Origin: Fidelibacterota bacterium
GTDB lineage: Bacteria; Fidelibacterota; JAANXI01
NCBI GenBank assembly: GCA_021734025.1
Contig: JAIPJS010000005.1
Location: 2,112 to 66,111 of the forward strand
Direction of reading: 5' to 3'
Length of the DNA stretch: 64,000 bases
Each line of letters starts with the position of its first letter. The stretch's first letter is position 1. Made by a program: the position numbers and the translations under genes. This document shows positions 4,542 to 46,527 of this stretch, one piece after another. The notes below the pieces were generated by a model that was not told the origin of the DNA, ran no database searches, and was given only the letters and a program-made list of their open reading frames with translations.

Positions 4542-5403
4542 TATTATAGTTGGGTACCTCCATGTATTCTGTCACCCGGGGTAACAGATCGCTCTTTGGA
4601 TAATCCTTTTTCAACGATTCAAACGCTTCCCTGGCTGCCATCTTGTTATCCAGTTTCAGGTAACAGAGAGCCCGTTTAAATTGCGCATGATCACCTTTAT
4701 TGGTTGCAGGGAAGTTCAACACCCGTTCGAACTCCTCGGCGGCTTTCTTGTAATCCTCCATAGAATAATAGCTTTCGGCGATCCAGTACTGGGCGTTATC
4801 AGCGTAATCATTGTGTTTATCAATAATAAGGAGCGTCTGGAATTCGGCAATAGCCCGGTAGTAATTCGCCCGGAAATATTCGTTCAGCGCCTTGTTATAG
4901 CGCTCCCGGTACTCGTCCTTACTGATGGGATCCAGCATGCCGGAAAGGTCTTCCGACTTCGTATAGAGGGAGTCCGAGTGCTTGATTTCAGCTGCTATGG
5001 CTTTGTTCTCCGCCGACTGAAGATTCCGGGTAATGAGCAATTCGCGATACGTATCCGACAGACTGTCGATTTCCACGCCGCCGTCATCGCCCGTGATGAT
5101 TCCGCTGCTGCTCCGATATCGCTGCCGCAACCGATGCTGCAGCGTTTGATTTTCCTCTTTCAGTCGGACAATTTCGTTCTTCAGATTGGAGACTTCATCG
5201 TGCAGGTTTTCAATTTGAGATTCCATTTCGAGTACATCCATCCTTTTTTGTTCCAGAAGTTCCTGCTTGCTGAGCTGGGAAGTATCCGACACCGCTGATT
5301 CCGAATGGGGTTCATCACCGGACACCTGCCGGGCACTGCTGCATCCGAGCAGTAGTAAAAGCGAGATTCCCACCGAGAAAAATAATAGAAACCGCTTATT
5401 CAT
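4531..5403 (-). CDS. YbgF/CpoB-like lipoprotein (coiled-coil plus TPR)
   Basis: The start is moved to the internal Met MNKRFLLFFSVGISLLLLLGCSSA (lipobox). It has a coiled-coil followed by a TPR C-terminus (AQYWIAESYYSMEDYKKAAEEFERVL). It is a paralog of the previous gene. Confidence 0.6.
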   Translation of the reverse strand: MNKRFLLFFSVGISLLLLLGCSSARQVSGDEPHSESAVSDTSQLSKQELLEQKRMDVLEMESQIENLHDEVSNLKNEIVRLKEENQTLQHRLRQRYRSSSGIITGDDGGVEIDSLSDTYRELLITRNLQSAENKAIAAEIKHSDSLYTKSEDLSGMLDPISKDEYRERYNKALNEYFRANYYRAIAEFQTLLIIDKHNDYADNAQYWIAESYYSMEDYKKAAEEFERVLNFPATNKGDHAQFKRALCYLKLDNKMAAREAFESLKKDYPKSDLLPRVTEYMEVPNYNNAQ

Positions 5404-6364
5404 ATTCTTCCCAATCGATGGAGTAAGAGTATCCAATGTAATTGCCAAACGACTTAGGCACATAGAGCTCAAACGTCCCCGAAGCCTCCGGCGGTAAGGC
5501 GGCATCGCTCTCAACGCCGGACTGATACTCGTATTGGATGCCGTCCACAAAGGCGGTCATCGTTTTGTTGTCGCCGCTCCAATTTCTCCGAAACTGGAAA
5601 TGCACTTTTACAAAATCGGCGCGCCGTTGACCGGTGTTCTTAATGGTGCCAGAGAAAATATGGTTCCCGGAAGCGTCGGTGCGTTCTTTGATGCTGCCAA
5701 CCAAAACGCAATTCGCGCTCTGATCCAGTCCCTGCGGAGCCGGCTCCTGGCTCCCGGTCATGGATTTCAATGGCTTGGTCGTTGAACTTTCACTTTTTTC
5801 GGCGGCAGGTTGAGGGGCCGGCTTTGGGGATTCTCCGCCTTTAGTCGAAGTCGTTTCCTGTTCCTGGAACACGGTTGCCTCGTTATCCACAATACGTTTT
5901 ACGGCCGATCGTTCCAGCGATAGATAGCCAATTAACGTCTCTACCTTAATGACCCGCTCATCCTGGGCAACGATCTTTCCAAAGACGGAAGTCCCGTTGT
6001 TCAGAATTATTTCCTTATCATAGACAGAGAGCGGATTCAGCCAGATAGAGGCTTTCGCCTGCAGTTCATCCAGTTGATTCTTCACGTAATCCACCTCAGC
6101 CCGCTGCTTCTTCAGCTGGAAGTTCAGCTCGTCGACCCGCATTTCCAGATCACTCCGGGAAGCCGCCGAACTAGCTGCCGTTCGCCCGGAAGTATTCTGT
6201 GCAGACGATGCGGTATCCGACGCAGTCTGCCCGGATTGGGAGGTTTGTGTTCTTTCCGCTGCCGGTGTGGACGTCTGTGCATCGGGATGATCCCTGAGCG
6301 TAAACAGACTACAGCTCGTCAGGAATACTGCTCCCAACAGCACGTTCGGAAGCCATCGGATCAT
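5396..6364 (-). CDS. hypothetical lipoprotein with coiled-coil region
   Basis: The start is moved to MIRWLPNVLLGAVFLTSCSLF (lipobox). The protein has an S/T/A-rich linker, a coiled-coil, and a conserved-looking C-terminal domain. Confidence 0.5.
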   Translation of the reverse strand: MIRWLPNVLLGAVFLTSCSLFTLRDHPDAQTSTPAAERTQTSQSGQTASDTASSAQNTSGRTAASSAASRSDLEMRVDELNFQLKKQRAEVDYVKNQLDELQAKASIWLNPLSVYDKEIILNNGTSVFGKIVAQDERVIKVETLIGYLSLERSAVKRIVDNEATVFQEQETTSTKGGESPKPAPQPAAEKSESSTTKPLKSMTGSQEPAPQGLDQSANCVLVGSIKERTDASGNHIFSGTIKNTGQRRADFVKVHFQFRRNWSGDNKTMTAFVDGIQYEYQSGVESDAALPPEASGTFELYVPKSFGNYIGYSYSIDWEEYE

Positions 6365-17687: not shown

Positions 17688-17875
17688 AGTATTGCGTACT
17701 GCGTATTGCGTATTCGTAATCATTCGCACCTTGCTTTGAATGACCCTTTCAGGGGTCTGCGACCCCTGAAAGGGTCATTTTTACTTGTCTCCGTTGGTCC
17801 AGCAACCGCCAGTGTTTTTGTTGTGGTAAAAACGACCGACGGGAATTCTTTTACGCAATACGTAATACGCACTAT
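17688..17875. repeat. MITE-like element with imperfect terminal inverted repeats and a central perfect 16-bp-stem hairpin, inserted between ABC ATPase and permease genes
   Basis: The left end is agtattgcgtactgcgtattgcgtattcgtaat. The right end is the reverse complement of atagtgcgtattacgtattgcgtaaaagaat. The central palindrome is gaccctttcaggggtc-tgc-gacccctgaaagggtc followed by a T run. Related motifs occur at 19443-19540, 37725-37765 and 48640-48680. Confidence 0.55.
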
Positions 17876-23734: not shown

Positions 23735-24262
23735 ATTTTATCTACCGGCATTCTTTCTTCTTTTGCCTTGATACAAAAGTGGAGAAAAAATCAAGGCTGC
23801 CAAATTAATTTCGGTATCGGCAGCAACGCCCTCCTTACCAGAACCAGAAACTCGTCCGGCAACTGCCGGACTCAAACAGCTGGTTCTGGCTTCACGTCGG
23901 ACGTTGGCCGACAGAGCGAAATTAATTTGAAGGCCGAAACTCAAAAGCAAAGAGATTCGTTTTTCGGTCTCGCCATTCCTTAAGTACGAACGACTGGTGC
24001 GATGAGGACAGGATAATTCGGCTGTCTGACGGAGTGGAGCGACGGAGTTCCGAATTATCCCCGAATCGCAGCGTAGTTGTTCTAGAAAGGAATGGCATAA
24101 CCGGATTTTTGCAGCACTTTTTCTAAAAAAGTGCGGAAGAAAAAGAAAGTTTATCTTTCGACATAGGTTAGTATTTATCAAAAACATTTACCTATTGTAC
24201 CAGTCACATCAATTTGTTTGTATTCCCCTTTTGCCTTGATATAAAAGTGGAGGTCGGAGTAA
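23735..24262. repeat. modular structured repeat, locus A (about 1.5 units, forward orientation)
   Basis: Contains the modules hairpin(CTTGAT loop)-AAAAAATCAAGGCTGCCA, cggtatcggca, the ccagaaccagaa...cagctggttctgg hairpin, gaaattaatttgaaggcc, ttttcggtctcgcca, and gatgaggacaggataat. A second unit then starts with the ggatttttgcagcactttttctaaaaaagtgcgga hairpin and ends in a second CTTGAT hairpin at 24225-24253. Confidence 0.7.
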
Positions 24263-26354: not shown

Positions 26355-26786
26355 GCAGCCGGATTTTTGCAGCACTTTTTCTAAAAAAGTGCGGAGAAAA
26401 AGAAATTTATCTTCCGATACAGGTTCGGATTTATAAAAAAGGTTAATCTGTTGTACGGTTATGCAATCACATTAATTTAGTTTTAAGCATCCCCGTTTTG
26501 TCTTGATACAAAACGGGGTAAAAAATCAAGGCTGCCACTACAATTTCGGTATCGGCACCCATTCCCTCCGGGCCAGAACCAGAACTCCCTGCGGTCAGAC
26601 AGCTGGTTCTGGCTGTCCTATGGTCATGGGCCGATAGAGCAAAATTGTAGTGGAGGCCGGAGTAAAAAACAACGGTGGCCAAAATTGAAAACGATGCCAA
26701 AACTAAAAAGTGAAGAGAAGCGTTGGTTTTATCGGTCTCGCCACTCCTTTGGTACGAACTACTGGTGCGATGAGGACAGGATAATA
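26355..26786. repeat. modular structured repeat, locus B (one complete unit, forward orientation)
   Basis: Module order is the gcagcac hairpin, then gttgtac..cacatc, the CTTGAT hairpin at 26491-26518 (perfect 11-bp stem), aaaaaatcaaggctgccac, the ccagaaccagaact..cagctggttctgg hairpin, caaaattgtagtggaggccgg, and gatgaggacaggataat. Confidence 0.7.
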
Positions 26787-27296
26787 TTAATGGCTCCAAT
26801 TCTTTTTAAGATTTTCAAACGCATGCAGCAGTTTTTCATTTCTGCGATAGTATAAATTGTGTTCGAAGACCTGTTCTAACTTTACAATGGCTTCATCTGT
26901 CGTTAGGGTGTTTTCCATTACCATCCGATCAAAAGCCCACAACAACCCATGTGTCTTTATCTTGTGCTTTCTTCCCATTTTACGCAAAACGCCATCGCTG
27001 GTTAGCAGCAATGCACTTTCCTTTTTAGCAAGAAACCAAACTGAGCGGTCGGCAATCGAAAGGGACATGGACAGGTTGAAGGGATCCGTTTCGTCAATAA
27101 AGTTCTCTTCGATTTCAACAATAGTGAGTTTTTCTTTTTCTACCCATGTGGATAAAAATTCACGTTGGTCTTGATCTAACTCCATCCACACCTGATATGA
27201 GGTAATAATATTATGGGGTAATTGGAAAAAGGCATTACAAGCATCGCACAGCAGCAAATCGATAAATATCGAAGCATCTGTGACGGCTAATTTCAT
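26787..27296 (-). CDS. DUF4411-like PIN-fold protein, the usual partner of an ImmA/IrrE metallopeptidase
   Basis: MKLAVTDASIFIDLL... N-terminus. It has a 1-nt gap or overlap with the upstream HTH-ImmA gene. The pairing is recognised from gene context. Confidence 0.5.
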   Translation of the reverse strand: MKLAVTDASIFIDLLLCDACNAFFQLPHNIITSYQVWMELDQDQREFLSTWVEKEKLTIVEIEENFIDETDPFNLSMSLSIADRSVWFLAKKESALLLTSDGVLRKMGRKHKIKTHGLLWAFDRMVMENTLTTDEAIVKLEQVFEHNLYYRRNEKLLHAFENLKKNWSH

Positions 27297-28689: not shown

Positions 28690-29465
28690 CTTTATTCCCC
28701 CTTTTGCCTTGATGCAAAAGGGGGCGAAAAAATCAAGGCTGCCACTACAATTTCGGTATCGGCACCCATTCCCTCCGGGCCAGAACCAGAACTCGGTCAT
28801 TGCATTCTCTCAAACAGATAATACTGGCTTTACGTCGGACGTTGGCCGACAGAGCGAAATTAATTTGAAGGCCAAGTTCCAAAAGCACGAGAGTCGGTTT
28901 TTCGGTCTCGCCATGCTTGAGCCCCAGTTCCGGCGTCTACCTTTCGACAAGCTCAGCTCCGGAAGGAGCCTCTTCCGAGGGATGACGCCTCTAGGAGTCA
29001 CTCTGAGCCTGTCGAAGAGTGGCAAACTCTTTGTCTATCGAATGTGAGGAATTTCCCAAATTGGAGTGAAAGATAAATTCATGAATTATTCAGGTTAGGT
29101 TTTCATAAAAACGTTTATCGATTGTATCGGGAAGCAATTATATCAATTTGACTTTATTACCCGTTTTGTCTTGATACAAAACGGGTAGAAAAAATCAAGG
29201 CTGCCACGACAATTTCGGTATCGGCACCCATTCCCTCCGGGCCAGAACCAGAACTCCCTTCGGTCAGACAGCTGGTTCTGACGATCCTCCAGTCATGGGC
29301 CGATAAAGCAAAATTGTAGTGGAGGCCGGATGAACAAAACAGTATACAATCTGAAAAATATCAGTAGTACACAAAATTGAAAGCGAGGCCAATACCTTAA
29401 AGCAAAGGGAATAATACTGTAGTTTATCTGTTGTACTTCAGTCACATCTTGGTAATATTACACCC
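28690..29465. repeat. modular structured repeat, locus C (two partial units, forward orientation)
   Basis: CTTGAT hairpins at 28696-28724 (stem cccccttttgc/gcaaaaggggg) and 29160-29185 (stem cccgttttgt/acaaaacggg). Each is followed by aaaaaatcaaggctgccac..cggtatcggcacccattccctccgggccagaaccagaact. The locus ends with ctgtagtttatctgttgtacttcagtcacatc. Confidence 0.7.
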
Positions 29466-29529: not shown

Positions 29530-29952
29530 ATGACCGACGTTCACGAGCCGGAAGTCCGCAGTTACAATATGAGCCGGATTCGGGGTAAGGATACTAAACC
29601 CGAAATGCTGGTTCGGAAGTTTTTGCATTCCTACGGTTTTCGTTACCGGTTACACGTGAACAATTTGCCTGGAAAACCGGATCTGGTTTTACCAAAATAT
29701 AACACCGCGATATTTGTTCACGGCTGCTTCTGGCATGCGCACGAAGGATGTGAGTACTTCAAAATTCCGCAAACCCGAACGGAATTTTGGAAAGAAAAAT
29801 TATTCGGTAACAGAGAAAGGGACGAGGAAAACATTTCTGAACTCCGGAAAATGGAGTGGAACGTTATCGTGGTTTGGGAGTGTGAGTTAAAATCAGAGGA
29901 AAAGGAAGTGAAACTTCAGGAAATTGCAAATAAGGTTGAAGAAAATAAATGA
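29530..29952 (+). CDS. vsr: very-short-patch repair endonuclease
   Basis: MSRIRGKDTKPE...FVHGCFWHAH.GC...TEFW..K...N..RD...L...GW.V..VWECE are classic Vsr motifs. Confidence 0.85.
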   Translation: MTDVHEPEVRSYNMSRIRGKDTKPEMLVRKFLHSYGFRYRLHVNNLPGKPDLVLPKYNTAIFVHGCFWHAHEGCEYFKIPQTRTEFWKEKLFGNRERDEENISELRKMEWNVIVVWECELKSEEKEVKLQEIANKVEENK

Positions 29953-30386
29953 GCATACCTGTTATTGACATTTTTGCCGGCCCTGGAGGCTTAGGAGAAG
30001 GATTTAGTTCCGTTATGAATGAAGAGGGAGAACGGTTTTTTAATACAGTCCTCTCTATTGAAATGGATGAGTATGCTCACGAAACGTTAGAGTTACGAAG
30101 TTTTTTCCGCCAGTTTGCGCCCGGCAAGGCTCCTGAAGAGTATTACAAGTTTTTACGGCAGGAAATCGATAAAGAAGAATTATTTAAGTCTTGGCCTGAG
30201 CAGGAAGAAAAAGCAAAAAATGAAGCTTGGAATATCAAGCTTGGATTTGATGAAAGTTCAGTAACCCCAGATGAAGTCGATCGAAGGATAAGGGTTGCAT
30301 TAAACAATGAAAAAAAATGGGTTTTGATCGGTGGCCCTCGTTGCCAAGAAAAGCCTATGCCGACTCTCAATGGCCAAAATCTGTGA
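29949..30386 (+). pseudogene. remnant of a DNA (cytosine-5)-methyltransferase (motifs I-IV only)
   Basis: Motif I FAGPGGLGEGF. Motif IV is degenerate (GGPRCQ instead of GGPPCQ) and is followed by unrelated residues, with a stop after 145 aa. No downstream frame continues an MTase. It overlaps the vsr stop (ATGA). The intact paralogous dcm starts 450 bp further on. Confidence 0.6.
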
Positions 30387-30835
30387 TTTTGTTCCTATTG
30401 AGTTATCGGTAAAACTCGCTACACTCAGAAAATCTTTAAAAAGTTATTAGTTCTGAGTCTGATTTTTATTATCATATTAAGGAGACTTTCGAAGGGTTTT
30501 CTCAAATAATTGTATCGATCAAAATTCGAATTGTGCCCAGTGGTGATGAAATTTGTCGCTGGATCGATGATAACCTGAATTCGGCAAAGATTCCAAGAGA
30601 AGTAATACTCGAGGATATAGGTGATGGACTCAATTCCTTTGGCGTACACTTTAAAAACTATGACCCCAAAGCCAGGTTCGCCGATAAAGAAAAAGTGAAG
30701 AGGTTGTCGAGGTTGGTGTAGGAGGGATGATGAGAAACCATATACTATCCTGAAAATTCTTATTTTATAAATGACTAAGTTTGTTCATTTTAGAGAAAGT
30801 TAAACAACTAATTTATTTCAGAATAGCTTAAATTA

Positions 30836-32041
30836 ATGAAATACATAGATTTATTTGCGGGTGCCGGCGGTCTTTCTGAAGGTTTTTACAGGGAAGGATT
30901 TGAAGCTGTGGCTCATATTGAAAAAGATCACCATGCTTGCCAGACTATTAAAACCCGGACTGCCTTTCATTATTTAAAGCAGGAAAATCATATCTCTGAA
31001 TATATTCGTTATCTGAACCAAGAAATAACAAGAGAAGAATTCTATGATTTAATACCTGATGAAATACTTGATACGGTAATTGACGCTGAAATATCGGAAG
31101 AGACCTTAGAAGACCTTTTCAATTTAATTGACCAGAAGCTTGAGGATGAAGAACTTGATTTAATAATTGGTGGCCCTCCTTGCCAGGCATACTCTAGTGC
31201 CTCCGCTTATATTGAAGAAAAAAACGAAAAATTAATTTATTTATATGAATTATATGGTGAATTCCTTGATCACTTTACTCCAAAGATGTTCATCTTTGAA
31301 AATGTACCTGGAATTTATACGGCAGATGAAGGAAAATATTATGAAGGGCTGAAAGAATGCTTTAAAAATGCGGGCTATGAATTTGAAGATAAAAAATTGG
31401 ATGCTTCTGAATTTAACGTACCACAGAAGAGAGAACGGGTAATCATAATTGGTTGGAGAGAAAACTTAGATTTATCATATCCTGAATTTGAAAAGAAAAT
31501 ACCCGATACAAAGATTGACGAATTATTTAATGATTTACCAGACCTTGAACCAGGCAAGTCTTACGATCCGGGAAATCACTACACACAAGGAGGATCTGAG
31601 TATGTTAATACCTATATCCGAAACGGAATAGATGTATTGACACACCACATTGCCCGCCCTCATAATGAAAGAGATTTGAATATTTACAGAATGGCTATAG
31701 AAAGATGGGAAGGAGGTGCGAGGTTAAAGAATTCAGATATTCCTGAAGAGATGAGAACTCAAAAAAATATCTCATCTTTTTTGGATCGTTTTAAAGTAGT
31801 TGATGGTGAAGGTTTTTCTCATACTATGATAGCTCATATCGCCAAAGATGGTCATTACTACATTCATCCGGATCAGAAGCAATTACGCTCTATTTCAGTT
31901 AGGGAAGCGGCCAGAATTCAGTCTTTTCCAGACGATTACTTTTTTGAAGGACCTCGAACTTCTGTATTTACTCAAATTGGCAATGCTGTGCCACCAATTC
32001 TTGCACAAGAAATAGCACGCAAAATAAAAAGGGTCCTTTGA
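30836..32041 (+). CDS. dcm: DNA (cytosine-5)-methyltransferase
   Basis: Motif I DLFAGAGGLSEGF, motif IV GGPPCQAYSSAS, motif VI ENVPG, and motif X QIGNAVPPILAQ. Confidence 0.85.
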   Translation: MKYIDLFAGAGGLSEGFYREGFEAVAHIEKDHHACQTIKTRTAFHYLKQENHISEYIRYLNQEITREEFYDLIPDEILDTVIDAEISEETLEDLFNLIDQKLEDEELDLIIGGPPCQAYSSASAYIEEKNEKLIYLYELYGEFLDHFTPKMFIFENVPGIYTADEGKYYEGLKECFKNAGYEFEDKKLDASEFNVPQKRERVIIIGWRENLDLSYPEFEKKIPDTKIDELFNDLPDLEPGKSYDPGNHYTQGGSEYVNTYIRNGIDVLTHHIARPHNERDLNIYRMAIERWEGGARLKNSDIPEEMRTQKNISSFLDRFKVVDGEGFSHTMIAHIAKDGHYYIHPDQKQLRSISVREAARIQSFPDDYFFEGPRTSVFTQIGNAVPPILAQEIARKIKRVL

Positions 32042-34401
32042 TGACTAATTATAAAGAGATATCAACTTATTCTTTTACTCCAGGGGCAATGTCAATTATT
32101 CAGATGGGCGAAGAACTCATTGGGCAACCCAATACTGCTATTAATGAATTAGTAAAAAACGCCTATGATGCCGACGCAAAGAATTGCGAAGTTTATTTTC
32201 ACAGTGCTGAATCAAAAGAATCATCCTTTACTCTAATTTTTGATGATGGAAATGGGATGGATGAGTCTATTCTATTTGGTGATTGGCTTAAGCCTTCTGT
32301 AAGTGATAAACGAAAGGAGGGGGTTAAAAGTCCTGTATATGGAAGAAATTTATTGGGTAGTAAAGGAATTGGCAGACTTGCTTCTATGGCCCTGGGCAGG
32401 CTTGTTACTGTTATTTCAAGACAAAATCCTTCGGATGATTATAACTGGATAACAGTAGACAGGGAATTATTTAAGGAGGAAGCTTTACTTAAGGATATCA
32501 AATTTCCAGGCTCAAGCATTGAGAACTACCTAGATTTATTTAGAGATGAGGAGTTACTAGAAATTAGAAACTCTTATGAAAATGATGAGCTTTTTGAGGT
32601 TCTGAAAAAAAATGACCTTGATCATTTTGAGAAAGGCACATTAATATTGATTGAGGAGTTTGATGAAGCGGTAGTTAAAATTCTCAGGAAAGATTTTCTC
32701 GAAAGTAACGAGAAATTAAATGAGCACTCTCTGAAGAGTACCAATTTCTATAAGTCTTTAGCCACACTTATTACTCCGATAACTTTAAGTTCGGAAATCC
32801 AGGATGAATTATTAGAAAGAGAAATAATTGATGCGAAGAAAATCATTGCATCAAAAGATGATTCATTTGAAATAAGTTTTGGAATCAATTTGCTCCCTGA
32901 TCAGGAAAAATCTGAAATAGAATGGCAGGATATAGACCCAATTCCAATACTTGATGTTTTTGATTACAGGGTCTTTGGTAAAGTTACTGGCGAAGGTGAT
33001 GTTGATGGATATCTTGGCTTCAACAGACTTGAAAAAGATGGCCATGAAATAACTTTTTCAATTTCTCGGAATGAAATTAAAGATAAAAGCTTACGCGGTA
33101 AGGATCAGCCGACATTATTTGATAATGAAAGTGATTCTGAAAATGAAATGGAGACAGGCGAATATTACTTTGACTTCCGAGTATATGATATGGGAGAATC
33201 TGATAATCGGGCAAAACTATCTGAAAAAGCTGGGTTCGAAAATATAAATACCTTTAGAAGTACTTTTAAAGAATTTCAAGGGCTTAGGGTTTCAAAAAAT
33301 GGATTTGGTGTAAAGCCATATGGGGAAGAGGTCGAAGACTGGATAGGTTTATCTAAAGCGAGAGTTCAGAATCCAGGTCAAAATGTTAATACCAATCAGA
33401 TTATTGGTTATGTCTTTTTCTATTCCCCGGAAAATGATCAGATTGAAGAAAAGACTAACAGAGAAGGTTTTCTTGAAAACACAGCTTTCATTCAGGTTAA
33501 GGAAACTTTAAAAGTTATTTTCAAAAACCTAGGACGTAAAAGGTATAACTATCGATTAAAGCATGGTCTTGGCAGGGTGCCTTCCAGTAAACATAAAAGA
33601 CCTAACATAGATAAGTTTCTAAAGTCTATTGAATCCAGTAAAAATGTAGATCAGGCCAGAAAAAAATCAGAAAAATTTGTCAAAGAGATTACGACTTCTT
33701 TGGATAATTTAGAAGAGGCATTAACATTTTCAGAACGATTAGCATCTCTTGGTAGCGGAATAGAACTGGTGTATCATGAGATGGTACAGCCTATTTCAAC
33801 TTTGAGAACTACGAAATCTTCCTTAGATCTAAAGAAAGAGAAAATTGCTGAGGCGGTTAAAGAGATCTTCCTCAACGATATAAATTCATTGAATAGTGCA
33901 ACTGATGTATTAGCAGAGTTAAGAAATTCTCTTCAACCTGCAATAGGGAGAACAAGAACTAAAAAATTCAAACCTGTTGATACCTTTTTGCGGGTATGCA
34001 CCTTATTTAAAACGGATTTTGAGGATGCAGAAATTAGTATAAATCTTATTGGAGAAACTGAAAATTTTACTCTGAAAGATTATGAATACCCCTTCTGGAT
34101 AGCTTTCCTGAATATTTTAAATAATGCCGTTTATTGGATAAAAAGGTCGGAGGAACCAGGAACTATTTATTTTCAAATAGACAATGGAAACATAATAGTA
34201 GGTAATACAGGACCGCTTATATCAGAAGATATTATAGAAGATATTTTTGAATATGGTGTCACAACCAGAAAAGAGAAAAATGCAACCGGATTAGGCCTTT
34301 CTTACACGCAAAGTATTCTCAGTAAAAATGATTGGGACATAACAGCTGAGAATCGAAAAAATGGACCGGTATTTATAATAAAAAAGCAAGAAAGTGAATA
34401 A
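32038..34401 (+). CDS. fusion protein: N-terminal MORC/Hsp90/MutL-like GHKL ATPase domain, about 380 aa of unknown middle region, C-terminal histidine-kinase core (HisKA H-box plus HATPase_c)
   Basis: N-terminal N-box ELVKNAYDADA, G1 FDDGNGM, G2 GSKGIGRLAS. C-terminal H-box ELVYHEMVQPISTL, N-box FLNILNNAVYW, G1 QIDNGN, F IFEYGVT, G2 GLGLSYTQSIL. The start overlaps the dcm stop (ATGA). Confidence 0.6.
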   Translation: MMTNYKEISTYSFTPGAMSIIQMGEELIGQPNTAINELVKNAYDADAKNCEVYFHSAESKESSFTLIFDDGNGMDESILFGDWLKPSVSDKRKEGVKSPVYGRNLLGSKGIGRLASMALGRLVTVISRQNPSDDYNWITVDRELFKEEALLKDIKFPGSSIENYLDLFRDEELLEIRNSYENDELFEVLKKNDLDHFEKGTLILIEEFDEAVVKILRKDFLESNEKLNEHSLKSTNFYKSLATLITPITLSSEIQDELLEREIIDAKKIIASKDDSFEISFGINLLPDQEKSEIEWQDIDPIPILDVFDYRVFGKVTGEGDVDGYLGFNRLEKDGHEITFSISRNEIKDKSLRGKDQPTLFDNESDSENEMETGEYYFDFRVYDMGESDNRAKLSEKAGFENINTFRSTFKEFQGLRVSKNGFGVKPYGEEVEDWIGLSKARVQNPGQNVNTNQIIGYVFFYSPENDQIEEKTNREGFLENTAFIQVKETLKVIFKNLGRKRYNYRLKHGLGRVPSSKHKRPNIDKFLKSIESSKNVDQARKKSEKFVKEITTSLDNLEEALTFSERLASLGSGIELVYHEMVQPISTLRTTKSSLDLKKEKIAEAVKEIFLNDINSLNSATDVLAELRNSLQPAIGRTRTKKFKPVDTFLRVCTLFKTDFEDAEISINLIGETENFTLKDYEYPFWIAFLNILNNAVYWIKRSEEPGTIYFQIDNGNIIVGNTGPLISEDIIEDIFEYGVTTRKEKNATGLGLSYTQSILSKNDWDITAENRKNGPVFIIKKQESE

Positions 34402-35521
34402 TTTGGGTACAATAATTCATTTAGACAACGATGAAAAAATTCTTCAAGATTTTAAAGGGCTATTCGATCAGTCCGGTATTAATCTTGATTTAGTCACTTG
34501 CCAAACAAAAGATGAATTTTATAAGCTTATTGAAGAGCATAAAAATTCTCTAAAGGCATTGGTCTTTGACTTATTAAGTTCTGAGCCCGGTAAAGAAGAA
34601 CTACACAAAGGTGATGCAGAATTTCTGGACTCTGTAGAGGATAGTTTTTCTACGGTTAGTATTCCTATTTTCATTTACAGCGGGTTTTTAGAAGCTATTG
34701 AGGAACAATTTGAAACCCATGGAACTGTGTTTAAAATTGATAAAGCAAATGGGCCAGACGAAATACTCAGGCTGATCAAGCTTTTTGATGAATCTGGATT
34801 TTTAGACGTATTTAGCCCGGGTGGAAAAATTGAAAAAGATTTTCATAATGAATTAAATAAATCTTTTATATCTCAATTCACAAATAACAAGCAAATAGAA
34901 GAAATAATTAACACTGTTGCTGAAGAGGATGTCAAAGAATCTAAAGAAAGGGTTGAAAAGGTCTTTAAGAGAATTGCCTTAAGGTCACTTTTAACCGTGC
35001 TTCAGTTATCAGAAAATGAAGGAGATGAGGAATACCTTAATCCGGTTGAGCACTATGTGAAAAGAATTAATGATCAAAAGATTGTAACTGGAGATATCTT
35101 TTTTAGCCAAGAAAAAAACGAGCATTTATTAGTAATGACACCCAGATGTGACCTTGCTAATAAAGATCCTCAAGAAATTTTAGTATGTAATATTGATACA
35201 GAAAAATTTCCAGATAAGACGACAAGTAACACTCAGAAAGGTAAAATTCTTAATGCTATTACTGATAATCCTGAATATTCAGGTTATGACAGATACTTAG
35301 TTAGGTCCCCTTTTTTTGTTGGCGGCTTAATAAAAATTGGATCTTATTCAATGATAGCAAAGGAAGAATTACTGTCTAGTTACGATCTTCAGATAACATT
35401 AAGTGATGAACTTACAAATGAAATACTGGGTAAATTTGGATCTTATTTTTTCCGTACTGGAATTACAACATGGGATCTTGACGAAACTGTAAAATTCATA
35501 GAGTCGATAAAGGAAGATTAA
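34394..35521 (+). CDS. receiver (REC) domain protein with about 250-aa C-terminal domain of unknown function
   Basis: GTG start overlapping the kinase stop. IIHLDNDE (beta1 acidic pair), ALVFDLL (putative phospho-acceptor Asp near residue 59), IPIFIYSG (Ser/Thr position), and VFKIDK (Lys position) match a CheY-like spacing. I recognised nothing in the C-terminal region. Confidence 0.5.
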   Translation: MNNLGTIIHLDNDEKILQDFKGLFDQSGINLDLVTCQTKDEFYKLIEEHKNSLKALVFDLLSSEPGKEELHKGDAEFLDSVEDSFSTVSIPIFIYSGFLEAIEEQFETHGTVFKIDKANGPDEILRLIKLFDESGFLDVFSPGGKIEKDFHNELNKSFISQFTNNKQIEEIINTVAEEDVKESKERVEKVFKRIALRSLLTVLQLSENEGDEEYLNPVEHYVKRINDQKIVTGDIFFSQEKNEHLLVMTPRCDLANKDPQEILVCNIDTEKFPDKTTSNTQKGKILNAITDNPEYSGYDRYLVRSPFFVGGLIKIGSYSMIAKEELLSSYDLQITLSDELTNEILGKFGSYFFRTGITTWDLDETVKFIESIKED

Positions 35522-35523
35522 AA

Positions 35524-36228
35524 TTGACCTTCAAAAACTGGCTCATATCTACTGGACGAAAACCAATTTCAGCAAAGAAATATGAAAGTGCCGTATACGG
35601 ATCAATTTCTGGTTGGGCAGAAGAGGCTGGAATAGTAAAGTCAAACCTAATTGATGTCAATGATCCTGAAGAGTTTGAATCACTTTCCAATAGGATTAAA
35701 GAACTTGAGATTTTTCTGGAAAGAAATACTGATGGACATCAGATGTACAGCGCTGCATTAAACAGGTACTCAGAATACCTGATAGCTATCCAAAATGAAA
35801 TTGAAGAGGATATAGACAAAGTATCAAATGATGATTCTGTTTCTGAAACTGAAAAAGACAGTCTTATTAAATCCCGTCTGGGTCAGGGCGTTTTCAGAAA
35901 AAGTCTGATGGATTACTGGCAGAGATGTGCAGTAACCGGCTATCAATCCTCTAAATTATTAGTCGCTTCACACATTAAACCATGGAGAAGTTCCGATAAC
36001 AAAGAGCGTATGGATGTGTTCAACGGCCTGTTATTGATTCCAAATCTTGATAAAGCTTTTGATAAAGGCTTCATATCTTTCAAAAAGAATGGTAGCATTA
36101 TAATTTCAGAGTTTTTCCAAAAACCGGCTTCATTGGGAATAAAATCTGATTTAAATCTTAAGATTTCTAATAGGCACCAACCATATCTTGAATACCACCG
36201 TGATATAGTATTTCTGCAAGCTAATTAA
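35524..36228 (+). CDS. HNH endonuclease (HNH_2-type) with N-terminal domain of unknown function
   Basis: TTG start 2 nt after the REC gene stop. C-terminal CAVTGYQSSKLLVASHIKPW...NGLLLIPNLDKAFDKGFISF is the HNH_2 signature. Confidence 0.65.
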   Translation: MTFKNWLISTGRKPISAKKYESAVYGSISGWAEEAGIVKSNLIDVNDPEEFESLSNRIKELEIFLERNTDGHQMYSAALNRYSEYLIAIQNEIEEDIDKVSNDDSVSETEKDSLIKSRLGQGVFRKSLMDYWQRCAVTGYQSSKLLVASHIKPWRSSDNKERMDVFNGLLLIPNLDKAFDKGFISFKKNGSIIISEFFQKPASLGIKSDLNLKISNRHQPYLEYHRDIVFLQAN

Positions 36229-37459: not shown

Positions 37460-38092
37460 AACGCGGTTAAGATAGTATATGCCGGGGTTGGTTCAAAAGG
37501 TAAAAAACCGTGAGATGTGAGACGTGAGATGTGAAACGAAAATCAGTCAGCAGTAGGCAAAAATACACAACCGGGGGAATGACAGGCGGCTTCAGGAATT
37601 CGTGATAATTATTGGAAAAAAGGAATAGGGATTACGGAATAAGGAAAAAAGAACGCCCCTTTGGGGCTGGATGAAAAACCATGCGTACCCATCAATGGGC
37701 ACATTCGTCAATTGCATAAGACAAATGACCCTTTCAGGGCCATTCGACCTCTGAAAAGGTCTTTATGTAACATTTTCAATCGTTCGTATGAATACTACCG
37801 TCACCGACGCTGTTAGCGATCGGCGACGGGATCATTTTTTTCCGAATTCCATATTTTACGTTGAATTCCAACAAATATGTCAACCCCGTGGGAGTCAGAC
37901 TAGAGAGCTCGGGAAAATTTTGCATGCATTTTTTTATCTCCCACGTAATTCGTGTATAGTCACGGATAGGTTTTTCAGTTGTTATCTGTGTAATCAACTG
38001 ACAGTTATTTCTTCGTGTCTTTGAGCCTTCGCGGCAAATTTTTTCGGTTTTCTTTGGCTCTTTTTTCTTAGCTCTTGGTTCTTTCGGTTTAG

Positions 38093-39505
38093 TTAAAAAC
38101 GAATTTCTGCCTGAATCATGGAAAGAAACGCTGTGCGGTTGTTTTCGTCCCGAACCGGCACGACAGAAAAAGAGGGAATCACATCAAATGATTTCCGGGA
38201 TTCAAGAGTAGAGTAGGTGCCATCTCTGCTGACATCCAGGATGGAGCGCGTCAGAAAGAAACCGCCGGCGCCACCGGCCATAACCATTGCAGAGATAACC
38301 TTTCCGTCGTTGATAGAAGTCAAAGCGGCGGTACCAAGGCTGAACGCCATACCGGAACCTGTACCCAGTGCCATAAGTACCGCCTCTCCAAACTGGTAAT
38401 CATCTTTGGAAATGTACCGATCCATCAGAAAGGCACCACCCAAACTTCCGACTGTTCTCATTGTCAGGCTAAGCGAGGACTCCAAATCGATATCTGCAAT
38501 CTCCGAAAGTAACCCTGCGTACATCAGGCCAAGCAACCGTCCCTCGTAGAGCATAAGGGCGTCACCGAACGTATAATTCCGGTCGCCGAAGTACCGGTGT
38601 CCCAGGTAAATACCCAGTGGATAGCCGGCCATCTCCATGAGTGCATCGGTGCGTTTCCATTCCTGATATTTTTGAAGAGCCTGATTATACTCTTGCTCAT
38701 GAAAAATGTATTGGCCTGACCAGGGGTTATATTCTTCATATTCCCATTGCTCTGGTTTGTCTTCTGTGCCGGCCGAAATACGGTGCAGGTTCCTTGAAGC
38801 ATAGCCTCCTAATTCGCCCCACAGACTGAGTGCCCAGGAGTGGCCATGACTCGGCTTCCACTGTTTATACAGGTAATCTCCAGCCCATATCCCAGCCGGA
38901 ACAGAAGCCATTAACGACACAGCCCAGCCCTTGGAACTGTTGGTAAAAAGGTCAACTTCGGAAGGCCATAATTCGAAGACATCATTGACTAAATAGCCAT
39001 ATCGTAGTCCCAGCACCGATCCGCCTCGCATCATCTGGGCACGGCTGTACGGTATGTTCATATTTTTTGTGTACTGGTAGGTCAAATAAAATGCACCGCC
39101 GATTGAAAGCATTTCCGTCCCGACATACCACTTGGGATTCTCGGCATCCAGGACAAACGGAATCGTCCAGCCGTACAATCCGCTGCCGATAGCAATATTT
39201 TGGAGGACGACCGGCCAGCGGCCGGACTGGTCTAACCGGTCAGGTTGATTTCGGATGATGTCGTTTTCGAGCCGGGTAACCAGATTGTCCGGTAGATGAA
39301 GAGAGGACTGGAGAGTCCGCAGCAGATACCGCTCATTCTCATCGATGGATCCGTCACGGAAAGCGGAACGCAACAGATTTTCGTAAATTCCTTGCGGATT
39401 CAGGGAATCGGAGGGTATAGTATCTGCGGCAGTGGTTTGACCCGTTGCCGTGACTGTAAGGCAGCACAGCACCAGTATTACTGGAAACGCATAGAGGTAT
39501 TTCAT
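38093..39505 (-). CDS. hypothetical exported protein
   Basis: Signal peptide MKYLYAFPVILVLCCLTVTATGQ. 470 aa rich in G/A/M, possibly an outer-membrane protein. Confidence 0.5.
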   Translation of the reverse strand: MKYLYAFPVILVLCCLTVTATGQTTAADTIPSDSLNPQGIYENLLRSAFRDGSIDENERYLLRTLQSSLHLPDNLVTRLENDIIRNQPDRLDQSGRWPVVLQNIAIGSGLYGWTIPFVLDAENPKWYVGTEMLSIGGAFYLTYQYTKNMNIPYSRAQMMRGGSVLGLRYGYLVNDVFELWPSEVDLFTNSSKGWAVSLMASVPAGIWAGDYLYKQWKPSHGHSWALSLWGELGGYASRNLHRISAGTEDKPEQWEYEEYNPWSGQYIFHEQEYNQALQKYQEWKRTDALMEMAGYPLGIYLGHRYFGDRNYTFGDALMLYEGRLLGLMYAGLLSEIADIDLESSLSLTMRTVGSLGGAFLMDRYISKDDYQFGEAVLMALGTGSGMAFSLGTAALTSINDGKVISAMVMAGGAGGFFLTRSILDVSRDGTYSTLESRKSFDVIPSFSVVPVRDENNRTAFLSMIQAEIRF

Positions 39506-40333
39506 GGTTGGAACTCCGGTGTTATTGGTAATCGAAATATATCTGTGGATTGCGGTTCACGCAATATGAATAGTGATAAACAACAAAAAGACGGAAGTCA
39601 CTAATAGGCAAAAAGTAACGAAGATATGGGAGAATGACAGCCGACGGAGACGCCATTGTACGAACAAGCGGACGTCTCCAGGCATTCGTGATGATATCGG
39701 ATATGTGGAATTGGGAATAGGGAGAATCGTGATGCAAAAAATATACAGCAATCGTGAAAAGGGGATAGTTAATATGGGTTGGCGCGTCCTTTAAAAGTCG
39801 TGAACAGGAATTAATGAACCGTAAAAAAGCAAGAGGGGTGTACACCAATTTAATATCAAATAAATGAAAACCGATAATTGAGCCCCGAAGGGGCGGTCGC
39901 AATTAGCCCACCAATTAATTGGTGGGATCCGGGTATTCCCCCAAACAATCAAGTACGGTGAGGCGCGAGGGACGACCTGGTGTGGGTTGTCGAAGCTACC
40001 GCGGCCTCATCAGCAGGCACGCTGTTTCGCATCAAGACGTATGAAAAACAGAATATCGGAGAGGGGCATCTGCCGTTCCTCCTTGGGTACGTCCAGGGGC
40101 AATGTATGTATGCGATTTATCATGTCCTGAAATCCAGCGCGCCTCGCCCAGTCCCTCAGGAATACAAGGGTTGGCGGTAGTACTGTGGTGTTTTCAGATA
40201 CTTTAAATATTTCTGCCTTACGGTGGTTCATTCCGTAATTCGTGTTCATTCCTGTCTCTTCGTGGACAATATTTTTTCACGTCCTTGAGACTTCGTGGTA
40301 AACTCTATCGGTTTTCTTTGGTTCTTGGTTCTT

Positions 40334-40831: not shown

Positions 40832-40959
40832 GTTATGTGACCTCCGTGATTTTCATTTTGGTGCTCCGAAAATTTGTGGTAAAAAATACCGAGATTTTTC
40901 CTGTAGGGCAAACTGCAAACTACATGAAATTGATTTCAAAACAGCATCTATTTTTTGGT

Positions 40960-41745
40960 ACTTTTGGCCAGCCCCAAAAGTACCAAAAAAGGCCTGCCTC
41001 CAAGAGATCCTTACGGGAGAAACTCAGAACTCGCACTGCTCTTTTGATGGATGGTCTTTCATAATACTATTTGGAACTCGAATTTGATATATCGCCATCA
41101 ATTTGGGTGCTCAAACACTGAGTTTCCGGGTTAAATGCAAAGAACCCGGTACCCAGCGGCCTTGCTATTCATTTTGGGCACCGCTTCAACGAGTGGAGGC
41201 AAACAGAACCAGACTGTCCGAGTCCGGCGGCAGCCGGACGAGTTTCTGGTTCTGTTCCGGAACGAGTTGCTAAGCGGTCAAAATGGATAGCACCGCCTTG
41301 ATTTTTTTACATCCTTTTGTATCAAGACAAAAGGATGAAAGAACAAAGCTGTTGTTCACTCATCATGCAAGCCTCAAAGATATTCCCACGGGAGAAACTC
41401 AGAACTCTCCCGTACATCTTTATGACAAGCTATTCACCACCAAGGCAATCTCGTCTTTTGTAAATATATAGGAAATACCAGGTTCCTTACACAAGAGTGA
41501 GTAATAATTCTACTTACATTGCCCGTTTTTTCTTGATAAAAAAACGGGCAGAAAAAATCAAGGAAGCTCAGAACTCGCACCCGTATGTCGAAAATTGGTC
41601 TTTCACAAATACCTTGTAATATTAGTAAATAATAATTGTTTTCTGTCGGGGTGCTCAAACACTGAGTTTCCGGGTGAAACAAAAACACCGCTTGTATATG
41701 GCCTTGCAATTAATTTTTAGGCCCTTTTAGCGTGCAAATGTTCCA
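40960..41745. repeat. modular structured repeat, locus D (mostly reverse-complement orientation plus one forward hairpin unit)
   Basis: 41105-41340 gggtgctcaaacactgagtttccggg...ggccttgctattcattttgggcaccgcttcaacgag...cagaaccagactgtccgagtccggcggcagccggacgagtttctggttctg...caccgccttgattttttt...ccttttgtatcaagacaaaagg is the reverse complement of the locus A-C modules. A forward hairpin lies at 41520-41575 (cccgtttttttcttgataaaaaaacggg..aaaaaatcaagg). gggtgctcaaacactgagtttccgggtg recurs at 41650. Confidence 0.7.
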
Positions 41746-45299: not shown

Positions 45300-46515
45300 G
45301 TTTTTCTTTAATTTGGCAGCCTGATTTTTTTCATCTTTTAGTGTGCACACGCTTCCGCCGGTGCGTAGCGGGTTTGTAGAAATGCATTAAAATAATTAGC
45401 CTGAATTATTCATAAACTCGTGGACTTGTGATAAAAAATATCGCGCTTAGTTGTTCAGAATCAACGATTTGTAGAGACACGCCATGGCGTGTCTCTACCC
45501 ACGAATATTTTGGCAGCGGAGTACTGCCCATTCATACCATACATCCGGTCAGTACTTCAATGCACAATTCCGAAGATCTTTTTATGAATAATACAGGTTA
45601 GAAAAGAATAATCGCACTATTGAATACCCGTTTTTTCTTGATATCCCATAGGGATCCCTTCCGGGGAAAAACGGGTAGCCTCGTAGAGATCCCTACTGGA
45701 GAAACTCAGAACTCGCACTTGTTATATCAATGATGTCCTTTCATAAGAATATTTGGAATTCATGTTTGGCTTATCGCCCTCAACTCGGGTGCTCAGACAC
45801 TGAGTTTCCGTTTTAAAAGCAAAGAGTCCGGTTCCCAACGGCCTCGCTATTTATTTTGGGCACCGTTGCGATGAGTGACGGATAGCCAGAACCGGCTGTC
45901 TGAAGGAGCGCAGCGACTGAGTTCCGGTTCTGGCCCGGAGCGAATTGTGAAACGGTCAAAATGGATAGCACCGCCTTAATTTTTTACATCCTTTAGTGTC
46001 CAGGTATTAATGTCCAAGTATTCCATACAAGCCCGCACAAGCGTATCAAGACAAAATGAAAGAAAATTAAATCTGTGCCTCACTTAATATTGAGTGACGC
46101 TCCACGGCAAGGTGGCCTCAACCTGATCTCAGCGAAAAAAATAAGAACACTGGTTGAATGTCCCCTTTTTCCTTGATGAAAAAGGGGACAGAAAAAATCA
46201 AGAAAACTTCGAGCTCACGCCTCCGTAATTAATGGCTTTCCCATTTATGATGACGGTGATCAAAATCAATGCTCAGGTAGATATTTCTAGGGGCGTTCAG
46301 ACAGCGAAGTTTTCGAAAACGTCAAAGCAGTTTATTATTGGCCTTGCTATTCATTTTGGGTACCGCTTCGACGAGTAGAGGCAAACAGAACCAGACTGTC
46401 TGAGTCCGGCGGCAGCCGGACGAGTTTCTGGTTCTGTTCCGGAACGAGTCGCTAAGCGGTCAAAATGGAAAGCACCGCCTTGATTTTTTCACCTGTTTTG
46501 TATCAACACAAAACT
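45300..46515. repeat. modular structured repeat, locus E (1.2 kb non-coding; several units, both orientations)
   Basis: 45305-45345 is a ggcagcctgattttttt fragment. 45625-45680 is a forward CTTGAT-type hairpin with an insertion. 45780-45995 is a reverse unit. 46155-46200 is a forward hairpin (gtcccctttttccttgatgaaaaaggggac..aaaaaatcaag). 46290-46510 is a reverse unit nearly identical to 41165-41340. Confidence 0.7.
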
Positions 46516-46527
46516 GGAAAGAAAAAA

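Follow-up and report, generated by a model that had tools for sequence, protein, structure and literature searches.

Loop-flank pairing in a dispersed hairpin module of Bacteroidota and related phyla: a candidate pseudoknot element

The DNA analyzed here is a 64,000-nucleotide stretch of a Fidelibacterota bacterium (GenBank assembly GCA_021734025.1, contig JAIPJS010000005.1, positions 2,112 to 66,111 of the forward strand), referred to below as the window. It harbors repeated copies of a short module that measures about 45 nt across the family. A 10-13 bp hairpin, with an A.U tract (TTTTGY/RCAAAA) as its upper stem, closes a loop of 6 nt, and a homopolymer linker then leads to a hexamer that can pair with the loop and is here called the tail. 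Comparison of copies gives good support to the view that the loop-tail pairing is under selection, being kept by compensating substitutions, and such substitutions indicate that the single-stranded form would adopt a pseudoknot-type fold with the loop paired to its flank. The favored interpretation, to which a probability of roughly one half is given, is that the module is an RNA pseudoknot, probably of the complementary strand and with a short U.A-U triplex, that acts in 3' untranslated regions (3'-UTRs) and operon spacers as a structural element resembling repetitive extragenic palindromic (REP) sequences. The strand given with a copy is the one on which its loop reads CTTGAT, and forward, when used of the module, means that strand.

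The module stands out from the background of the window. Counted as CTTGAT-N(4-30)-ATCAAG, the paired hexamers occur seven times, always with a spacing of 17-19 nt, against 0.19 expected from shuffled sequence; none of 100 shuffles reached seven. In each case a hairpin of 11-13 bp with the loop CTTGAT is followed by an A-rich linker and then by ATCAAG. A covariance model of hairpin and tail recovers eight copies over their full length, with scores of 50.8-66 bits, and no other part of the 64 kb scores similarly. The reference copy (26491-26530, plus; 65.3 bits for the model match at 26489-26533) consists of the 5' arm CCCCGTTTTGT (26491-26501), the loop CTTGAT (26502-26507), the 3' arm ACAAAACGGGG (26508-26518), the linker TAAAAA (26519-26524) and the tail ATCAAG (26525-26530), the exact complement of the loop. 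The window copies conserve the TTTTGY/RCAAAA upper stem together with loop, tail and A-run; the lower stems vary (CCCCG, CCCCC, TACCCG, CATCC, TGCCCG, TGTCCCC) and keep their complementarity. An earlier reading of the window, made from the sequence only, had offered five copies as examples of this arrangement, and all five show it. Its statement that every forward copy does so needs qualifying for a copy with the loop GTTGAT (46476-46520, minus), for a copy that has no tail (24223-24252) and for split copies at 45625-45676 and 46003/46043 (minus); the copy at 23754 has a degraded stem.

The evidence for selection on the pairing comes from copies in other genomes, obtained by scanning three collections (viral contigs, one genome per species, and metagenomes); all match counts are lower bounds. 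In a search of the retrieved loci with the covariance model, altered loops are accompanied by matching altered tails: CTTGAC with GTCAAG (three times), CTTGAA with TTCAAG, CTTGTT with AACAAG, CTCATC with GATG, CTTGTC with GACA and CTGGCA with TGCC. The same holds for radically different loops, such as ATTATC with GATAAG, CCAAAGCC with GGCTTTG and GCTCATCC with GGATG. One-sided loop changes also occur (CTTGCT, CCTGAT and the GTTGAT of the window). A set free of selection bias was obtained by scanning the metagenomes with the commonest stem and the linker fixed and with loop and tail both free. Among the matches listed, the joint distribution of loop and tail is strongly diagonal, with CTTGAT/ATCAAG joined by CTTGAA/TTCAAG (about 36 of 125) and CTTGAC/GTCAAG (about 16); CTTGCC/GGCA and CCGGCA/TGCC are also present. 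The coordinated change of loop and tail that the sequence-only reading had proposed to look for in further copies is thus found.

Covariation was scored on a gap-free alignment of these free-loop copies (alignment A3), in which the stem of the hairpin is 95.9% paired and the pseudoknot helix 87.4% paired. The pair between loop position 6 and tail position 1 is UA in 25 copies, AU in 19 and CG in 17, and the closing pair of the stem is likewise compensatory (UA 55, CG 16). The covariation score of 0.143 compares with 0.058 +/- 0.006 in shuffles (0 of 500 as high), a control that ignores the relatedness of the copies. With the partner shifted one to three columns along the alignment, which retains relatedness, the score is only 0.018-0.069. 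Hairpins with non-consensus loops are more complementary to their own loops than to permuted ones (p <= 0.0005), and the opposite orientation of the same hairpins, a negative control, gives only chance matches of 2-4 nt. Several loop/tail variants occur together on single contigs (L151, L152, L170 and L209), which argues that it is the pairing that is constrained and not one sequence read by one protein. The earlier argument for selection had been drawn from the conservation of the two hexamers in the window. Its conclusion stands on the copies from other genomes; the window hexamers are near-invariant, and the window alone would not have sufficed. As for stability, the isolated 6-bp loop-tail duplex has a predicted energy of -4.0 kcal/mol, or -10.7 kcal/mol if two neighboring pairs join, and stacking or a triplex would help it to form.

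Linker length carries a second regularity. The modal linker follows the T-run of the stem, with T-runs of 4, 5, 6 and 7 nt accompanied by linkers of 6 nt (39 of 69), 7 nt (11 of 16), 8 nt (3 of 4) and 9 nt (2 of 2), respectively, and is independent of the length of the variable lower stem. Modes and medians were used here, as regression on stem length is noisy owing to long-linker outliers. Three homopolymer runs therefore change together: the stem T-run, the stem A-run and the linker. Read on the forward strand, the linker is an A-run, for which a placement in the minor groove is possible; on the complement it is a U-run that lies parallel to the stem A-run. U.A-U major-groove triples are the geometry used in telomerase, SAM-II, preQ1-II and ENE RNAs. 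The relation between linker and tract is consistent with a triple-helix pseudoknot on the complementary strand, an arrangement that would explain why the linker follows the tract.

Other features also lean toward the complementary strand. Internal stem mismatches, read on the forward strand, are A.C or C.A in 29 cases and G.T in 3, with 12 of the 29 representing one variant found across Flavobacteriia. In the free-loop metagenome set, A.C-type mismatches outnumber G.T by 15 to 5 in the stem and by 8 to 3 in the pseudoknot helix. A.C mismatches become G.U wobbles on the complement, hence the lean. Among 126 copies with called neighboring genes, the complement is co-directional with both genes in 54 and opposed to both in 21, and the remainder lie between convergent (35) or divergent (16) genes; the 3' end of the tail-side gene faces the element in 89 of the 126 (71%), where this gene runs in the direction of the complement, and the other way in 37. 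The lean is moderate and applies equally to RNA and to single-stranded DNA. It modifies the earlier proposal of an H-type RNA pseudoknot formed by the forward strand: the covariation agrees with the topology, while mismatch types and gene orientation point to the complement. A strand call from the folding energies of the long hairpins described below was discarded; the raw difference favored the complement and was gone after a composition and shuffle control (p = 0.31).

Location within operons suggests that the module is transcribed in at least some places. A Tamlana contig (L151) carries four modules in four of the five spacers of a trpE-G-D-C-FB-A operon, all in the same orientation, such that the complementary strand runs along the operon; one of the four has a compensated variant loop. 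The end of the hairpin lies 15-65 nt ahead of the next start codon. Two modules occupy matching positions of the trp operon in another Flavobacteriaceae contig. The L151 spacers also contain (GAAGTTT)n tandem repeats, read in the mRNA sense, right after the stop codons and upstream of the modules (L151:3978-4276, 5270-5582 and 6150-6268).

The module is commonly part of something larger. In 91 of 126 modules (72%) a long hairpin follows immediately after the tail, and the combination of module and long hairpin is likewise conserved. In the stretch from 23.7 to 29.4 kb, each of the four copies passes directly from its tail into an imperfect hairpin of about 130 nt. That of the reference copy (26530-26658, plus) starts at the last base of the tail, bears an apical AACTC...TCAGACAG motif and, whichever strand is folded, is much more stable than its shuffles (z -4.9 and -5.3). 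The arms co-vary between copies (CACTACAATTT/AAATTGTAGTG versus CAAATTAATTT/AAATTAATTTG), and copies at 41-46 kb have downstream hairpins of two further subfamilies. In 29 of 126 copies, from several Bacteroidota and related lineages, the long hairpin carries a motif AACTCGC-(variable hairpin)-GCTCAAACAG, placed either apically or in an internal loop (examples at 23849-23880, 26570-26600 and 41019-41135 of the window and in L189, L160 and L224). The words GGCTAAAAAT and TTCTTAACGC recur in them as well.

Taken as RNA, the module may be pictured as follows. The functional strand would be the complement, which reads 5'-CUUGAU, then a U-run, then the hairpin with the loop AUCAAG. The U-run would form U.A-U triples with the A.U tract by occupying its major groove, giving an H-type pseudoknot with a short triple helix. 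The module would be carried in 3'-UTRs and intercistronic spacers, usually joined to the long hairpin, and would be a REP-like element of the mRNA, compact in structure and either resistant to nucleases or insulating; this placement with its role is the weakest step of the proposal. Its spread or exchange would take place as DNA by some further mechanism. The stronger version, in which the module is a bacterial counterpart of the ENE and telomerase-type triple-helix pseudoknots, copied into 3'-UTRs and spacers across Bacteroidota-related phyla as a portable device for stability or insulation, is tentative and, on the present evidence, rather doubtful.

Several points weigh against this interpretation. 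The RNA nature of the element is an assumption. Covariation lies mostly in the 3' half of the loop, and the first two loop positions are largely invariant or mismatched. The near-invariant CTTGAT/ATCAAG consensus across phyla suggests recognition by a sequence-specific protein as well. The correlation between T-run and linker may be inflated by the shared ancestry of copies. The strand evidence from the free-loop set is weak, and both orientations occur within transcription units, 21 of the 75 co-directional cases being opposite. With all six of its nucleotides paired, the loop would also have none left to serve as a linker on either side; TAR-TAR* kissing complexes give a precedent for 6-nt loops paired throughout, so that such a loop is no longer regarded as impossible, and the two helices may be able to form together. 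Finally, hybrid, split and chimeric copies, together with absence from the syntenic region of a close relative, are what is expected of a mobile or recombining DNA element.

This last point belongs to the main alternative, which is distinctly less probable than the RNA pseudoknot: the module may belong to a mobile or recombining element and serve it as a site in single-stranded DNA, where the loop-flank pairing presents a cleavage or joining site to an HUH-type enzyme (IS200/IS605- or RAYT-like) or to another enzyme specific for single strands. The pairing would then be selected in single-stranded DNA for transposition or recombination and not for an RNA function, although the RNA and single-stranded DNA readings are not mutually exclusive. 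IS200/IS605 enzymes define their cleavage sites by base pairing beside a hairpin, and TTGAT is the target of ISDra2. The state of individual copies is suggestive. The hairpins at 23755-23784 and 24223-24252 have the same 3' arm and different, non-complementary 5' arms, and look as if exchange had taken place inside the loop. The long hairpin at 28737-28875 has a 5' arm that matches the copy at 26530 and a 3' arm that matches the copy at 23795; the arms no longer pair, and the hairpin is a recombinant of two repeat subfamilies. Three hairpin types are broken immediately after CTTGAT by inserts of 24-45 nt (at 45625 and 46043 in the window, and in L155, where the interrupted hairpins lie at 722-809 and 253-331); the site after CTTGAT could be a preferred insertion point or one at which loop expansion is tolerated. 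The long hairpins, where directly attached, begin exactly at the end of the tail. Moreover, G.T is the best-tolerated mismatch in DNA too, so the mismatch bias fits equally.

Comparison with a relative points in the same direction. On contig L365, whose hemL has about 82% nucleotide identity with that of the window, there is no module in 12.6 kb of synteny, and two genes (GH31 and transglutaminase-like) stand between hemL and pcm, where the window has 1.3 kb of repeats. The copies of the window cluster in its variable parts. The family thus seems to be gained, lost and recombined as REP-type elements are. Against a DNA site stands the absence of any transposase or recombinase among 150 flanking open reading frames (ORFs), which are mostly housekeeping; no transposase, of the Y1 type or other, was seen among the 25 most frequent Pfam families or in any family with more than three members. 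In four loci RAYT genes (subclass 2.6) have different hairpins on their flanks and no module, known systems place the guide at the foot of the hairpin and not in the loop, and orthologous retention in the trp spacers of two genera suggests more than selfish spread. The recombination site with an inverted core that had been suggested as a DNA-level option is viable in this single-stranded form, for which hybrid and split hairpins exist, while its plain double-stranded form leaves the covariation unexplained.

It is improbable that no structure is selected at all, and that complementarity was inherited from one ancestral repeat that spread, the covariation reflecting a few subfamilies. Most copies do share one consensus, the unbiased sample consists largely of three loop/tail classes, and the shuffle control is blind to relatedness. 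However, identical compensations are found on different stem backgrounds and in different phyla, each of the unrelated loops CCAAAGCC, ATTATC and CTCATC is matched by a tail of its own in the usual place, and the score falls two- to eight-fold in the slid registers, a control that retains relatedness.

A transcription terminator or generic punctuation, formed by the hairpin or by the long hairpin with a T-run on the complementary strand, is a little less probable still. The scarcity of modules between divergent genes (16 of 126), the gene 3' end that faces the tail side in 71% of copies and the presence of UUGAUUUUUU after the long hairpin on the complementary strand would agree with termination. 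The small hairpin, however, has an A-run after it on one strand and a U-run before it on the other, a scan for consensus terminators does not call the module, modules stand between the genes of trp operons, and the loop-tail covariation would be left without a reason. In the relative, hemL is instead followed by a canonical terminator (CCGGGAGTCACTTCAAAGTGGCTCCCGG plus T7, L365:7285-7330) at the position that the variant module occupies in the window (46476-46527). A canonical intrinsic terminator was ruled out on the U-run that precedes the hairpin, the negative scan and the intra-operon placement.

A double-stranded DNA site that includes ATCAAG as an accessory inverted half-site, and is either an 11-6-11 tyrosine recombinase core or a target bound by a nucleoid or regulatory protein, is very improbable: 11-bp arms around a 6-bp center do resemble Xer/Cre-type cores, and inner arm and center are the most conserved positions, but outer arms that vary freely and yet stay complementary, and loop-tail covariation with several variants per contig, are unnecessary for duplex recognition, the loop-to-tail spacing varies by several bp, and many copies per genome lie beside unrelated genes. 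Three other explanations were rejected. No sigma-70 or Bacteroidota -33/-7 promoter arrangement fits, the spacers being 10-15 nt and a position table of 127 copies showing no conserved upstream motif. Minus-strand ORFs through the copies (e.g. 26467-26799) are repeat artifacts, the similarity being structural and at the nucleotide level. An association with a gene family was not seen; the 150 neighboring ORFs represent 151 Pfam families with at most three members each, and those listed have ordinary cellular functions.

The module is not private to its source genome, and the repeat family spans several phyla. Exact protein matches assign the window to a metagenome-assembled genome of Candidatus Marinimicrobia (Neomarinimicrobiota). 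The loop-anchored pattern TTTTGYCTTGATRCAAAA matched at least 120 loci in the scan of one genome per species. Among 80 listed loci with titles, almost all belong to Bacteroidota (Flavobacteriales, Chitinophagales, Cytophagales, Sphingobacteriales and Bacteroidales), Ignavibacteria or Balneolales; the few other taxa include Propionigenium, with two copies. The two-hexamer pattern gave mostly chance matches among those listed from the viral contigs, where the loop is enclosed by a stem of 6-10 bp in at least eight matches, spread over six contigs, five of them with the TTTTGY/RCAAAA stem. Collections of annotated phages and plasmids gave no match to the module. Of 134 copies with the consensus loop, 99 have the exact tail, 24 are within two mismatches of the AAAATCAAG consensus and 11 lack a tail; 127 of the 134 are intergenic. 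The window has a density of 8 copies per 64 kb.

Within the window, copies are intergenic and confined to 23.7-29.4 kb and 40.9-46.5 kb; the rest, scanned with the covariance model, contains housekeeping genes and zero copies. Both stretches adjoin genes for toxin-antitoxin, restriction-modification, Vsr and SWIM proteins, and copies also lie between hemL and pcm. In the first stretch, the copy at 23754-23798 (plus, 55.8 bits) has a degraded hybrid stem (TTCTTCTTTTGC / ACAAAAGTGGAG), with loop CTTGAT at 23767-72, tail at 23790-95 and a long hairpin to about 23935. It is followed by the hairpin-only copy at 24223-24252 (plus, 17.8 bits, partial), which has the loop CTTGAT between non-complementary arms and neither linker nor tail. 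Beyond the reference module lie the copies at 28695-28740 (plus, 65.9 bits; stem CCCCCTTTTGC, loop 28708-13, linker CGAAAAA, tail 28732-37) and at 29157-29327 (plus), the latter comprising a module at 29157-29202 (64.6 bits; stem TACCCGTTTTGT, loop 29170-75, tail 29194-99) and a long hairpin at 29199-29327.

The second stretch has copies in both orientations. The copy at 41294-41339 (minus, 66 bits) has its 5' arm at 41337-41327, loop at 41326-21 and tail at 41302-41297, and beside it is a long hairpin of the second subfamily (41297-41158, minus). The copy at 41519-41565 (plus, 50.8 bits; stem TGCCCGTTTTTT, loop CTTGATA at 41532-38, tail at 41557-62) is joined to a hairpin of the third subfamily that has a AACTCGCAC...GTGCTCAAACA motif and extends to 41671 (plus). 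A copy with a 13-bp stem lies at 46159-46205 (plus, 55.6 bits; loop 46172-77, tail 46197-46202), its downstream hairpin reaching 46314. The variant at 46476-46520 (minus, 54.2 bits), with the loop GTTGAT, the tail ATCAAG and a broken outermost pair, begins 7 nt past the hemL stop codon, and its long hairpin continues to about 46340. One split copy (45625-45676, plus, 11.4 bits) has a 24-nt insert directly after CTTGAT within the hairpin and has no tail; the other (45972-46052, minus) has its 5' arm and CTTGATA at about 46052-46043, then an insert, the 3' arm and the tail ATTAAG at 45985-45980. A related 17-bp hairpin (TTTTTTGGTACTTTTGG / CCAAAAGTACCAAAAAA, 40951-40990) has the loop CCAGCC followed by GGCCTGCC, of which only 3 nt are complementary to the loop.

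The window has further features of its own. A low-GC island (29530-36228, 34-37% against about 50%) encodes a Dcm-type methylase, a 787-aa GHKL ATPase, a 375-aa protein and an HNH_2 nuclease, with Vsr and a truncated dcm N-terminus ahead of it; it is probably an acquired restriction or defense island beside the repeat cluster. Rfam matches the window at a single place, an Acido-Lenti-1 RNA (RF01687) at 39881-39926 (minus), which scores 49.4 bits where the gathering threshold is 37 and lies just upstream of a 470-aa ORF (38093-39505, minus) with no Pfam match. Other short repeat families are a palindrome with a 17-bp stem, AATGACCCTTTCAGGGG... (17739-17779 and 37724-37764), direct repeats of the TATTGCGTA type (17683, 19449 and 48644) and GTGTTA-rich inverted repeats near gene ends (49898, 53147, 55791 and 60124).

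REP-type dispersed hairpins have been treated as simple stem-loops, whereas the co-varying feature here is a tertiary contact between loop and flank together with a tract-matched linker. An element that acts as RNA would be a pseudoknot or triplex of compact, modular build placed between genes, would bear on mRNA decay and operon expression in Bacteroidota, which are not known to have Hfq/ProQ-type factors, and might be used as a synthetic stabilizer. If the triplex is real, it would represent a previously unrecognized class of dispersed structured RNAs with tertiary structure in bacterial genomes. A single-stranded DNA site would point instead to an unrecognized mobilizing enzyme with structure-guided specificity. 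Within Rfam 15 and open-access text, no prior description was found: nothing in Rfam reached the gathering score over the modules of the window and 18 loci, nor was anything meaningful seen over them at E <= 5-10, and text searches by sequence strings and keywords returned no account of the module. CTTGAT, ATCAAG and AACTCG are not present in the supplement of a survey of HUH enzymes.

Known systems share parts of this architecture. Flavo-1 (RF01705) is likewise a repeated long hairpin of unexplained role, restricted to Bacteroidota, and is found on two of the same contigs (L152 and L228); it differs in sequence and structure, lies kilobases from the modules, and its model matches neither the window nor any module. 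Integron attC sites are also imperfect palindromes, of 60-140 nt, that are repeated between genes in variable regions and function as folded single strands, but they have no loop-flank pseudoknot, and the modules lie beside housekeeping genes in mixed orientation. The attC R''/R' core (RYYYAAC / GTTRRRY) was not visible at the hairpin bases on inspection by eye, with no attC model run, and no integrase was found among 20 ORFs scanned against Pfam, which cover part of the window. The ends of IS200/IS605 elements (IS608 and ISDra2) resemble the module in combining a hairpin with pairing between a short flank and a distant short sequence, and TTGAT and TCAA resemble the target of ISDra2 and the cleavage site at the right end of IS608. 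In the module, however, the pairing partner is the loop and not a guide at the foot, and modules stand alone and do not bracket an element.

A link to RAYT genes was considered and is not supported. Bacteroidota RAYT genes of subclass 2.6 have been reported to be flanked by 'atypical secondary structures' (PMC6006769). The covariance model found no module next to the RAYT genes of four loci (L149, L361, L363 and L364), which are flanked by hairpins of the CGAGTT..AACTCG type, and when all loci were scanned for RAYT motifs only one RAYT-like ORF came up, at 2.6 kb from the nearest module. In Sphingobacteriales and Cytophagales, RAYT genes (Y1 transposase, subclass 2.6) have inverted hairpins of the CGAGTT..AACTCG or CAAGTT..AACTTG kind on both sides (L149:3100-3800, and around 3900-4700 in L361, L363 and L364). 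The AACTCG arm of these hairpins resembles the apex motif of the long hairpins.

The H-type triplex pseudoknots of telomerase RNA, SAM-II and preQ1-II, and triple helices of the ENE/MALAT1 type, share with the complementary strand of the module a U-run joined to a helix with a length-matched U.A tract and a helix between loop and flank. The module differs in having neither a ligand nor a gene association, in occurring in many copies per genome, and in placing its whole 6-nt loop in the pseudoknot stem. Like the module, the REP, BIME and REPIN sequences of Proteobacteria are short hairpins that occur between genes in many copies, with stems that vary by compensation and a conserved oligonucleotide at the flank; they too are located in 3'-UTRs and between cistrons, are often combined into larger hairpins and differ between relatives, and REPs are known stabilizers of mRNA (PMC6006769). 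By the position tables of its stem flanks, the module has no GTAG or CGTC tag at the foot of the hairpin. Unlike REPs, its conserved flank pairs with the loop, and its consensus is not species-specific but common to several phyla.

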